NCBI RefSeq assembly: GCF_044647545.1
Contig: NZ_CP172818.1
Length of the DNA: 64,000 bases
Direction: 5' to 3' (one strand)
Source of the DNA: Escherichia coli
GTDB lineage: Bacteria > Pseudomonadota > Gammaproteobacteria > Enterobacterales > Enterobacteriaceae
The notes below the pieces were generated by a model. That model was not told the origin of the DNA, did no database searches, and saw only the letters and a list, made by a program, of their open reading frames with translations. Both the position numbers and the translations under genes were made by a program. Shown piece after piece: positions 35,808 to 38,782 of the stretch (its first letter is position 1; each line of letters opens with the position of its first letter).

Positions 35808-37622
35808 ATGTTAAATGCATGGCATCTGCCGGTGCCCCCATTTGTTAAACAAAGCAAAGATCAACTGCTCATTACGCTGTGGCTGACGGGCGAAGACCCA
35901 CCGCAGCGCATTATGCTGCGTACAGAACACGACAACGAAGAAACGTCAGTAGCGATGCATAAGCAGCGCAGTCAGCCGCAGCCTGGCGTTACCGCATGGC
36001 GGGCGGCGATCGATCTCTCCAGCGGGCAACCTCGGCGGCGTTATAGTTTCAAATTACTGTGGCACGATCGCCAGCGTTGGTTTACACCGCAGGGCTTCAG
36101 CCGAATGCCGCCAGCACGACTGGAGCAGTTTGCTGTCGATGTCCCGGATATCGGCCCACAATGGGCTGCGGATCAGATTTTTTATCAGATCTTCCCTGAT
36201 CGTTTCGCCCGTAGTCTTCCTCGTGAAGCTGAACAGGATCATGTTTATTACCATCACGCAGCCGGACAAGAGATCATATTGCGTGACTGGGATGAACCGG
36301 TCACGGCGCAGGCGGGCGGATCAACGTTCTATGGCGGCGATCTGGACGGGATAAGCGAAAAACTGCCGTATCTGAAAAAACTTGGCGTGACGGCGCTGTA
36401 TCTCAATCCGGTGTTTAAAGCTCCCAGCGTACATAAATACGATACAGAGGATTATCGCCACGTCGATCCGCAGTTTGGCGGCGACGGAGCGTTGCTGCGT
36501 TTGCGACACCATACGCAGCAGCTGGGAATGCGGCTGGTGCTGGATGGCGTGTTTAACCACAGTGGCGATTCCCATGCCTGGTTTGACAGGCACAATCGTG
36601 GCACGGGTGGTGCTTGTCACAACCCCGAATCGCCCTGGCGCGACTGGTACTCGTTTAGTGACGATGGCACGGCGCTCGACTGGCTGGGCTATGCCAGCTT
36701 GCCGAAACTGGATTATCAGTCGGAAAGTCTGGTGAATGAAATTTATCGCGGGGAAGACAGTATTGTCCGCCACTGGCTGAAAGCGCCGTGGAATATGGAC
36801 GGCTGGCGGCTGGATGTGGTGCATATGCTGGGGGAAGCGGGTGGGGCGCGCAATAATTTGCAGCACGTTGCCGGGATCACCGAAGCGGCGAAAGAAACCC
36901 AGCCGGAAGCGTATATCGTTGGAGAGCATTTTGGCGATGCACGGCAATGGTTACAGGCCGATGTGGAAGATGCCGCCATGAACTATCGTGGCTTCACATT
37001 CCCGTTGTGGGGATTTCTTGCCAATACCGACATCTCTTATGATCCGCAGCAAATTGACGCCCAAACCTGTATGGCCTGGATGGATAATTACCGCGCCGGA
37101 CTTTCTCATCAACAGCAACTGCGTATGTTTAATCAGCTCGATAGCCACGATACTGCGCGATTTAAAACGCTGCTCGGTCGGGATATTGCGCGCCTGCCGC
37201 TGGCGGTGGTCTGGTTGTTCACCTGGCCTGGTGTACCGTGCATTTATTACGGTGATGAAGTGGGACTGGATGGTAAAAACGATCCGTTTTGCCGTAAACC
37301 GTTCCCCTGGCAGGTGGAAAAGCAGGATACGGCGTTATTCGCGCTGTACCAGCGAATGATTGCGCTGCGTAAGAAAAGTCAGGCGCTGCGTCGTGGCGGC
37401 TGTCAGGTGCTGTATGCGGAAGATAACGTGGTGGTATTTGGCCGCGTGCTGAATCAGCAGCGTGTACTGGTGGCAATCAACCGTGGAGAAGCCTGTGAAG
37501 TGGTGCTACCCGCGTCACCGTTGCTTAATGTTGCGCAATGGCAACGCAAAGAAGGCCATGGGCAACTGACAGACGGGATTCTGGCTTTGCCTGCCATTTC
37601 GGCTACGGTGTGGATCAACTAA
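35808..37622 (+). CDS. malZ: maltodextrin glucosidase
   Basis: ORF 35805..37622; 604 aa from second Met; GH13 alpha-amylase family; TAA stop intact at 37620-37622. Confidence 0.9.
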
Positions 37623-38782
37623 CTGTTTTATTTATTACGTCGTATCACCACCCTACACTACGCACGCAAAAAAAATATTCCATTTTTGATAAAAAATATA
37701 GAAAAATAAATTTTAAATTTATTAAATTAATTTTTTTTTTTTTAAAAAACAAAATATATAAAAAATTATTTTCTTTATAGAAATTAAAAAAAATTAAACA
37801 TTAAAGGAAAAAATAGAATAAATAAAAAAAAAAAAAATTTTTTTAAAAAATTATAAATATTATATTTTACAATATAACATTATAAAATTCTTTTTAAATC
37901 ATAATAAAAAAAACAAAAACAAAGAATAAAAATAAAAATAAAAAAAGATAATAATGATTATTTTTTATAAACATATGATAAAATGATTAAATTTTAAATA
38001 TTTTAAAAATATAATTATATAAAAAATAAATAAAAAAAAAAAAAATAAAAAAAAAAAAAAAAAAAAAGTTATATTATTTTTATAAAAAAATTATTTAATT
38101 AAACAAAAAAAAAATAAAAAAAGAAAAAATAGATAAAGATAAAGATAAATTAATATAAAAAAAGAAAAAAAAGATAAAATTTGTAACCTAAATTTTATTA
38201 TTTAAAATATTACTAAAAAAGAAAAAGAGAAAAGAAAAAAAAAAAAAGTGAAATGTAGTATATGTAAATAAAAAAAAAAAAAAAAAATTAAAAAAAAAAA
38301 AAAAAAAAAAATAAAAAAAAAAAAAAAAAAAAAAAAAAAAAAAAGAAAAAAGAAAAAAAAAATAAAAAAAAAAAAAAAAAAAAAAAATAATAAATTTTTA
38401 TAAAAAAAAAAAAAGAAATAGAAGAAAAGGAATAAAGAAAAAAAAAAAAAAAAATATAAATATTTTTTTTTTTTTTGTTTTTTGTGTTAGGGTAAATTTA
38501 AAATATAATATAACAAAAAAACTCAAATTTATAATATTATGTGTATATATTTAGTTTAAAGAGTTTTTTAAGAGAAAAGAAAGAAAAGAAAAAAAGAAAA
38601 AATAAATAATGTTTTAAAAATAATTATAACACAAAATAAAAACAAAAAAGTGTTCATGAAGGGAATCGATGTAGAGGATGCACATATAAAAATAAAATTA
38701 AAAATATAACTTTATATATGTTTGTTTTTTTTTCTCAGTTGCGCATCCCAGAGGATAAGAAGGAAGAAGATAAAAGTGGGAG
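37623..38782. other. anomalous low-complexity, extremely A/T-rich block (poly-A dominated), non-coding, not native to this E. coli locus
   Basis: Abrupt composition switch right after the malZ stop; A runs of 22 and 32 nt (38290-38311, 38313-38344); no ORF of 60 aa or more internally; malZ-acpH spacing about 1.16 kb against the few tens of bp I recall; boundaries approximate. Confidence 0.8.

Follow-up and report, generated by a model that had tools for sequence, protein, structure and literature searches.

An A-rich block between malZ and acpH in an Escherichia coli sequence appears to be a garbled native island and is probably a reference-templated artifact

Organization of the malZ-acpH interval

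We analyzed a stretch of 64,000 nt of Escherichia coli DNA (hereafter, the window) with a focus on the interval separating malZ from acpH. Outside this interval and a second anomalous segment, the window is almost indistinguishable from a natural genome: over 1-3730, 6501-37673 and 38784-64000 (about 60 kb), only two mismatches and a few gaps separate it from NZ_CP033850.1. Because of this near-exact match, the window follows an ST648-like lineage at about 1,650 aligned positions that differ from K-12 (97.1-97.3% identity). The window also carries one private synonymous SNP.

The coding sequence of malZ (35805-37622, plus strand) is intact in the list of open reading frames (605 aa), and no mismatch relative to NZ_CP033850.1 was observed in this gene and upstream of it (6501-37622). 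We confirmed the earlier description of this boundary: the malZ stop codon (TAA; 37620-37622) is intact and is followed by 45 nt of normal composition (37623-37667, plus strand; CTGTTTTATTTATTACGTCGTATCACCACCCTACACTACGCACGC), after which the sequence becomes A-rich from 37668. The k-mer TCGTATCACCACCCTACACTACGCACGC marks this left junction. The A-rich core (37668-38737, plus strand) contains about 62% of A and has a GC-content of about 6%. When computed over 100-nt segments, GC-content drops from 0.48-0.55 to 0.01-0.12 across 37650-38650, with values of 0.44-0.67 in the flanks. Runs of A reach 32 nt in the block and 12 of them are at least 10 nt long, against a maximum of 7-8 nt elsewhere in the window. 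The list of open reading frames contains none of at least 60 aa inside the core, and the only ones of at least 40 aa that touch the block are an 80-aa frame entering from malZ and a frame of 42 aa.

On the other side, the core gives way to a remnant (38738-38783, plus strand) that loosely renders the 3' end of a native island, described below, together with the stop region of acpH (25 of 46 nt identical to the island in ungapped register), and exact identity to the relative returns at 38784. The native stop codon of acpH is lost. The acpH reading frame (38735-39361, minus strand) encodes 208 aa relative to 193 in the native gene: its native part is exact from 38784, and a spurious C-terminal extension of 15 aa reads into the remnant. 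An exact-protein look-up of the extended AcpH returned no record in the gene-position collection.

A native island occupies the same position

The closest natural genomes (e.g., FDAARGOS_497) carry an island of 1.65 kb exactly between malZ and acpH. This island has a GC-content of 37% and encodes an orphan protein of 481 aa (WP_022645275.1; locus EGY17_RS15225 in FDAARGOS_497) without any match in Pfam, NCBIfam or the PDB. A PADLOC match of this protein (E = 5.5e-4 over 52 residues) was too weak to be trusted. The island was found in 1,128 of 5,426 complete E. coli genomes (21%, about one in five), always with 90-100% identity, and all the full-length natural copies (n = 1,126) present an intact 481-aa frame and a nucleotide identity of at least 90%. 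The real locus of this lineage consists of malZ, a strong hairpin, the 1.65-kb island with its orphan gene and then acpH.

The window shares with this island its chromosomal position between the two stop codons, the sequence of its left end and a collinear core. The 45 nt that follow malZ are all identical to 54 native nucleotides (2129-2177 in native L001) once nine deleted nucleotides are allowed, namely AGCAT and four single G. In contrast to the native island, the block has a GC-content of about 6% and contains neither the 481-aa frame, nor the 3' arm of the hairpin, nor the acpH stop codon, and its identity to the island falls below 90%. In the earlier note, the 45-nt flank was taken to suggest that an inserted unit has ends of mixed composition; this flank is instead the left extremity of the accessory island carried by the relatives at this exact position. 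The note had also proposed that flanks identical to the native K-12 spacer would restrict the foreign part to the core. Such an identity exists in spirit, with the native sequence of the lineage itself, but not with the K-12 sequence. Finally, a mixed-composition flank is indeed present on the right (38738-38783), but it is no counterpart of the left flank, since it is only loosely island-like and the native stop codon of acpH is lost there. The left junction is thus the normal left edge of an accessory island, and no foreign insert ends there.

We then compared the core with the interior of the island. The score of the global alignment was 577 relative to 420 ± 13 for shuffled sequences, and the rotation profile peaked at offset 0. 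A comparison with Markov decoys yielded a score of 523.5 for the observed sequence relative to 288 ± 42 for the decoys (maximum of 425). The collinearity of shared 10-mers was weakly informative due to the low complexity of the sequence (Spearman 0.55; P = 0.03), and this test was superseded by the rotation and Markov-decoy tests. Matching quarter by quarter was ambiguous for two of the four quarters. Overall, the alignment of the block (1,161 nt) and the island (1,656 nt, i.e., 495 nt longer) comprises 882 matched columns out of 1,758. The retention of island bases follows their abundance (84% of A, 59% of T, 24% of G and 15% of C are kept), substitutions are mostly directed toward A (C>A, 52; G>A, 50; T>A, 41; C>T, 12) and the poly-A loops of the block coincide with a native A-rich tandem repeat. 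The right-hand third of the block includes stretches that look plausible but are wrong (e.g., 38649-38686), in which C>G and T>C substitutions occur. Suspicion toward the block was justified. The core is not foreign either: it is a collinear, GC-stripped and shortened ghost of the island's reading frame.

Alternatively, the island could have decayed in vivo, with mutations toward A/T and many microdeletions in an otherwise clonal strain, and the block does derive from the native island at its native position. However, this would require on the order of 800 changes in 1.65 kb (about 600 native bases lost, more than 100 inserted and more than 170 substituted), as compared to zero or one substitution in the 31 kb and 25 kb that flank the block. 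Natural alleles of the island differ by at most 10%, and A-runs of 20-32 nt, which are found nowhere else in the window, would not be stable. The spectrum, dominated by C>A, T>A and G>A and accompanied by massive deletion, does not resemble that of a deaminase. We specifically rejected deaminase-type hypermutation, which produces predominantly C>T/G>A transitions without indels. In vivo decay or targeted hypermutation is therefore highly improbable. More generally, it is very unlikely that the block represents real DNA, i.e., an erasure of G/C and a shortening restricted to this island in a single ST648-like strain; in such a case, the candidate processes would be repeated error-prone resynthesis biased toward A, or untemplated A-rich synthesis and repair.

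Terminator signals downstream of malZ

The absence of a visible hairpin followed by a T-tract between the two genes, as claimed in the earlier note, was confirmed on both strands by folding and by a scan of 37300-39100, in which neither strand yielded a terminator-like site. The 101 nt surrounding the junction fold with -5.9 kcal/mol on the plus strand (z = -0.5 relative to shuffled sequences), and the minus strand presents a z-score of +0.6. We found no G+C-rich stem-loop 3' of the malZ stop codon and no U/T-tract after a stem: the remnant arm in the window runs into an A-run. In island-bearing strains, the corresponding 101 nt fold with -34.2 kcal/mol (z = -5.0) into a nested stem of 13 bp and 5 bp that is terminator-like. 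The native stem is followed by only a weak GTTTGTT (GUUUGUU in RNA), and the native sequence failed the terminator consensus scan. Neither the native nor the window version of the region downstream of malZ matched an Rfam family. The window retains the position of this stem-loop and a degraded version of its 5' arm (37640-37667), but it lacks the 3' arm and folds like shuffled sequence.

It had further been claimed that a native terminator region was replaced at this position, and a comparison with the native K-12 spacer had been suggested. This comparator does not exist: only 4 bp separate malZ from acpH in K-12, and K-12 consequently has no terminator region to replace. ExcludonFinder lists malZ/acpH as a convergent excludon, i.e., with overlapping transcripts (PMC12288877). 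The window resembles this K-12 arrangement in that two convergent genes are not separated by a terminator, but it differs in that the 4-bp spacer of K-12 contrasts with the 1.65-kb island of the window's lineage. Because its lineage carries this island, the native configuration of the window sequence is not that of K-12. Taken at face value, the window would leave malZ without a terminator hairpin and acpH without a stop codon, a claim that needs read-level support. We conclude that garbling produced, as by-products, both the seeming loss of a terminator by malZ and the C-terminal extension of AcpH.

Searches for copies and mobile-element traits

In the 5,426 complete E. coli genomes, matches were limited to the first 51-53 nt of the block, which correspond to the native end of the island. 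BLAST searches against plasmids and phages returned only chance-level matches to AT-rich sequences. Pattern scans of genome and metagenome contigs for the junction and for a complex segment of the core, and of viral contigs for the core segment, yielded no exact match. We detected neither terminal inverted repeats nor a target-site duplication, and the repeats found in 37560-38860 are low-complexity self-matches, none of which pairs the borders. These searches revealed no copies of the block elsewhere, and it has no coding capacity for a transposase, an integrase or cargo.

A real foreign AT-rich cassette with mixed-composition ends, which would have replaced a native spacer and its terminator, would account for the abrupt change in composition, the flanks of normal complexity and the lack of the block in other E. 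coli. Yet, the left flank is native, the collinearity of the core with the native island largely refutes a foreign origin, the traits of mobile elements and reading frames are missing, plasmids and phages match by chance only and K-12-type strains have no spacer to be replaced. We consider this explanation scarcely credible. Natural AT-rich islands of E. coli have a GC-content of roughly 30-40% and are coding. The block shares a low GC-content relative to the core genome with AT-rich DNA acquired horizontally by enterobacteria and with cloned AT-rich eukaryotic DNA, but its GC-content is about 6%, it is non-coding, it is homologous to the island that resides at this locus and no plasmid or phage matched it above chance level.

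Other anomalies coincide with differences from K-12

The block is one of five anomalies that are private to the window. Fifteen nucleotides are missing directly after the tauD stop codon (2112-2113), so that the tauD/hemB terminator hairpin loses its 5' arm; the AC that remains agrees with TACG in K-12, and this deletion is found in no complete E. coli genome (best full-length match, 93.4%). A segment of 2.8 kb (3723-6511) places yaiT::IS3B of MG1655, with IS3 at about 5095-6352, within ST648-like surroundings. It is 100% identical to K-12 MG1655 over 3726-6511, and its left junction is non-homologous, with one extra base (3725) that introduces a frameshift and a stop codon. This mosaic is absent from complete genomes (best match, 97.7%). 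Natural recombination was ruled out for this segment by the extra base at the junction and by the lack of any genome with the mosaic. Directly after the yajD stop codon (45393-45394), the lineage-specific ATAA is missing at a site where K-12 carries a REP-containing insert that is about 138 nt longer. The yajO/dxs spacer (52445-52446) lacks the lineage-specific AC at the very point where K-12 has an insert of 125 nt. None of the five anomalies was found in any of the 5,426 complete E. coli genomes.

All five anomalies are located at five of the six structural differences larger than 20 nt between K-12 and the lineage; the sixth, a clean deletion of 102 nt, is rendered correctly. At the left junction, the loss of AGCAT coincides exactly with the spot where K-12 CGTTTTAT can anchor the lineage's CTGTTTTAT. 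In vivo decay of the island would leave the other four anomalies, which also lie at sites where K-12 and the lineage differ, unexplained.

Origin of the block

We infer from this distribution that the block probably represents a K-12-templated consensus or assembly artifact. The left junction does not delimit an inserted element, and it most likely does not represent real DNA. The window would result from a computational reconstruction in which K-12 MG1655 served as the template for the data of an ST648-like strain. Where the strain and K-12 align, the sequence of the strain would be reproduced exactly. At structural differences, the template could stay in place (yaiT::IS3B), a complex indel could be reduced to nothing but a deletion (as for ATAA, AC and AGCAT) or out-of-register reads could be used to build a large insertion that the template lacks. 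We propose that A would win and G/C would drop out in the latter case because reads are out of register and A is the commonest base. The rendering of the block is consistent with such a process: its first 45 nt are in register apart from the nine missing nucleotides, its center is poly-A and it partially recovers toward acpH.

Reference bias and consensus collapse are known for template-guided assembly and polishing. The window resembles such products in that errors are found only at structural differences, the template is kept where reads fail to align, complex indels take a simplified form and an insertion that the template lacks is built incorrectly. A toy consensus of noisy, unregistered reads of the native island yielded long A-runs and a composition of 53% A, 29% T, 11% G and 8% C; this speaks to plausibility only, since G/C were smeared by the model into short homopolymers instead of being deleted, and the 30% shortening was not reproduced. 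The A-enrichment and the shortening of the block are thus only partly reproduced by the simulation. We know of no standard pipeline that, as documented, emits an A-rich smear of 1.1 kb. The changes in the right-hand third of the block are not predicted by simple majority smoothing, which counts against a template artifact.

The main rival explanation, which we regard as somewhat unlikely, is that a left-to-right sequence model wrote or partly rewrote the window. At branch points of the pan-genome, such a model would lose register after stop codons or switch to the commonest allele (K-12), and a rare AT-rich gene would degenerate into A-runs until the model locks again on acpH. Degenerate low-complexity output is known from autoregressive sequence models, and the window resembles it in its homopolymer loops, its loss of register after stop codons and its switch to the commonest allele. 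Three of the four microdeletions start immediately past a plus-strand stop codon (tauD, malZ and yajD). The decay is asymmetric, from exact copy to dropped bases, collapse and gradual recovery; the K-12 junction resembles a base-by-base mix of two alleles plus an extra base. The poly-A loops at the native tandem repeat, the plausible but wrong stretches and the absence of the sequence from all collections searched also agree with generation by a model. However, free generation would be expected to show a fidelity far below that of the window, and about 60 kb of one lineage with two mismatches, the lineage state at about 1,650 positions and a private synonymous SNP are hard to reconcile with it. 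The conversion of indels into pure deletions and the exact template patch are more typical of a mapping-based consensus. The sites in question are polymorphic in the species in general, and a model mixing memorized lineages could give the same association with K-12.

An ST648-like sequence could also have been corrupted in some other way, for instance by a fault in a file or its encoding, by graph assembly of mixed strains or by manual editing, which could produce an A-dominated replacement with long A-runs and a mosaic of exact pieces of two genomes. Corruption at the level of bits or bytes, however, would not generate hundreds of small deletions or a collinear partial similarity, and the output of a graph assembly is limited to k-mers that its reads contain, so that both the block and the extra base at 3725 would be left unexplained. 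These causes are clearly improbable. The K-12-templated artifact would account for the restriction of the anomalies to sites where template and sample differ structurally (five of five, with two mismatches elsewhere in about 60 kb) and for the unmodified stretch of template (3726-6511).

Implications

Our results indicate that the block does not represent a real biological feature, and they provide no support for a new element, a terminator replacement or an insertion. For quality control, the segments 37623-38783 and 3723-6511 as well as the sites 2112, 45394 and 52446 are unfit for mining biology. A suspect region can be diagnosed by comparing it with both its nearest natural relative and a common laboratory reference: anomalies located exactly on the structural differences between these two genomes point to a template-driven artifact. 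The native locus of this lineage, with its hairpin and its orphan gene, is uncharacterized but constitutes ordinary accessory DNA of E. coli.

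The left junction and the A-rich block

The malZ gene is intact (35805-37622, + strand, 605 aa) and ends in a TAA stop codon at 37620-37622. The sequence and the list of open reading frames confirm what the earlier note had described: 45 nt of ordinary complexity directly follow the stop (37623-37667), after which an extremely A-rich tract begins at 37668. Measured in 100-nt windows, the GC-content drops from about 0.5 to 0.01-0.12 across 37650-38650 and recovers by 38800. A-runs of 10 nt or more occur 12 times in the block and reach 32 nt, as compared with a longest A-run of 7 nt in the rest of the window. 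We found no surviving open reading frame in the A-rich core, no terminal inverted repeats or target-site duplications at the block and no Rfam match for this region. The lack of a terminator at the junction was likewise upheld: a consensus scan of 37300-39100 yielded no terminator-like site on either strand, and the 101 nt of the junction fold at the level of shuffled sequences (-5.9 kcal/mol with z = -0.5 for the + strand; z = +0.6 for the - strand).

None of the records from 5,426 complete E. coli genomes covers the block, and its flanks are present in 5,424 of them (megablast of 37000-39400). Plasmid and phage searches with the block returned no meaningful match. Exact matches to the junction pattern and to a complex core pattern were absent from the genome-representative and metagenome collections, and the core pattern was also absent from the viral collection.

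The native malZ-acpH locus

The records best matching 37000-39400 were ST648-type strains such as FDAARGOS_497 (NZ_CP033850.1), in which an island of 1,652 nt separates the two stop codons. Between malZ and acpH, this island carries a 1,446-bp gene (NZ_CP033850.1 2771690-2773135, or 2310-3755 in L001, our handle for the region) encoding the hypothetical protein WP_022645275.1 (481 aa). It was found in 1,128 of the 5,426 complete genomes, always chromosomal and with 90-100% identity to the FDAARGOS_497 copy in every case; the carriers include O157:H7 and O55:H7. The island has a GC-content of about 37% and its protein contains a KIAEKIAKK-type repeat. WP_022645275.1 is an orphan protein: it matched nothing in Pfam, NCBIfam or PDB, and a weak PADLOC match ("effector/peptidase", E = 5.5e-4) was judged untrustworthy. 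Since K-12 MG1655 has only 4 bp (CGTT) between malZ and acpH, the K-12 spacer once proposed as a comparator does not exist. The pair is listed as a convergent excludon, with overlapping transcripts, by ExcludonFinder (PMC12288877).

The left flank had been read as the mixed-composition end of an inserted unit replacing the terminator region. Alignment with the left end of the FDAARGOS_497 island refutes this reading: all 45 nt are identical once deletions are allowed, the sole difference being the loss of AGCAT and then of four single G. The earlier interpretation is supported in part, with malZ intact and a terminator-like hairpin gone, but the flank is native and the idea of an inserted unit with its own ends is wrong. 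In FDAARGOS_497, the flank bases make up the 5' arm in a nested hairpin (CAGCCCTGACAC...GCAGC-N8-GCUGC...UGUCAGGGCUG) immediately followed by GUUUGUU, and the native 101 nt fold at -34.2 kcal/mol (z = -5.0; 0 of 200 shuffles as stable). This strong hairpin adjoins malZ in island-bearing strains (L001 2154-2205; about -34 kcal/mol on the + strand and -38 kcal/mol on the - strand) and has no Rfam family; it may plausibly be the terminator of malZ or a structure of the island end. The window lacks any 3' arm of it, and a terminator-like structure is genuinely absent after malZ. The lost AGCAT sits just upstream of CTGTTTTAT of the lineage, which can pair with CGTTTTAT of K-12.

At the other end, the right flank bears a loose likeness to the 3' end of the island (25 of 46 nt identical). 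With its native stop codon gone, acpH is extended by 15 codons that run into the garbled sequence (38735-38783, - strand), giving 208 aa relative to the native 193 aa; an identical protein is absent from the public gene-position collection.

The A-rich core as a ghost of the island

The core and the island align collinearly, with a global score of 577 against 420 ± 13 for shuffles and 466 ± 17 for shuffles within 20-nt windows. When both near-identical flanks were left out, the score was highest with the island unrotated (523.5), declining smoothly to about 245 once it was rotated by half; decoys made from the island by a first-order Markov model reached 288 ± 42 (maximum 425). The alignment retains 84% of the native A, 59% of T, 24% of G and 15% of C; G and C are for the most part deleted (57% of G and 62% of C) or turned into A. 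Substitutions occur in similar numbers (T>A 41, C>A 52, G>A 50), and the island exceeds the block in length by 495 nt. The longest A-runs coincide with the A-rich tandem repeat of the island (GAAAAAATTGCG x4) and the sole long T-run with a T-rich stretch. The core is a ghost of the native island. A deaminase or known mutational signature was ruled out by the abundance-ordered retention, the substitution toward the commonest base and the net shortening.

Collinearity and the substitution spectrum both count against a real foreign insertion between malZ and acpH, which we consider extremely improbable, and against decay or hypermutation of the island in vivo, which is very unlikely. Two further observations oppose both: the flanking sequence, in contrast to the block, shows 2 mismatches in about 60 kb relative to FDAARGOS_497 (aligned blocks 1-3730, 6501-37673 and 38784-64000), and the block has four companion anomalies.

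Five anomalies at K-12 structural differences

The window departs from FDAARGOS_497 in only five places, each found in 0 of the 5,426 complete genomes, and by one private synonymous SNP. At tauD/hemB (2112-2113), 15 nt are missing directly after the tauD stop, one terminator-hairpin arm is lost, and the residual AC agrees with TACG of K-12. A 2.8-kb patch (3726-6511; IS3 at ~5095-6352) is 100% identical to yaiT::IS3B of K-12 MG1655, and its left junction to the ST-type ehaB (3723-3726) has one extra base causing a frameshift and an immediate TGA. The malZ-acpH block (37623-38783) is the third, followed by the loss of ATAA directly after the yajD stop (45393-45394) and of AC in the yajO/dxs spacer (52445-52446). 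The microdeletions of 15, 4 and 2 nt lie at the exact positions of K-12 REP-like inserts absent from the lineage, and two (tauD and yajD) begin immediately downstream of a + strand stop codon.

K-12 and the ST-type relative present six structural differences above 20 nt in this region, five of which coincide with the five anomalies. The remaining one, a clean insert of 102 nt that only K-12 has between mak and araJ (window ~23300-23500; L003 25356), has no lineage-specific replacement bases and is rendered correctly, probably because it amounts to a pure deletion without such bases. At both yajD/tsx and yajO/dxs, the K-12 inserts are replaced in the lineage by a few bases of its own, and precisely these are missing from the window: a complex indel has become a pure deletion. 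Wherever the ST648-like strain aligns to K-12 MG1655, the window follows the strain, over some 1,650 aligned positions specific to the lineage (identity to K-12 of 97.1-97.3%). A single clean private substitution occurs in 60 kb, in thiI (56626, C>T, CTG>TTG; C in FDAARGOS_497 and K-12); it suggests that a real isolate, a close relative of FDAARGOS_497, lies behind the data.

Origin of the block

The regularities of the anomalies point to a non-biological origin. We favor a K-12-templated consensus or polishing artefact as the probable explanation, because the errors fall only at structural differences between the strain and K-12 and the strain is followed wherever it can be aligned. At such differences, K-12 is kept, the difference simplified or the insertion mis-built. 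Having no counterpart in the template, the 1.65-kb insertion would be built from out-of-register reads, among which the commonest base would win and G/C would fall below the majority. A plurality consensus of 60 noisy island copies, left-justified without realignment, gave 53% A, 29% T, 11% G and 8% C with A-runs of up to 74 nt; it differs from the block in that G/C were smeared rather than dropped and no shortening occurred. This toy simulation backs only the plausibility of the artefact.

The main rival, which we consider unlikely, is that a generative sequence model working from left to right wrote the sequence: such a model would be expected to adopt the commonest allele, and poly-A loops, errors that set in immediately past stop codons and some plausible-looking but wrong stretches fit it, whereas near-perfect fidelity to one lineage across 60 kb does not. 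The malZ-acpH junction is best considered not to be a real feature. We find it highly doubtful that the block is genuine as written; if it were, it would be extraordinary.
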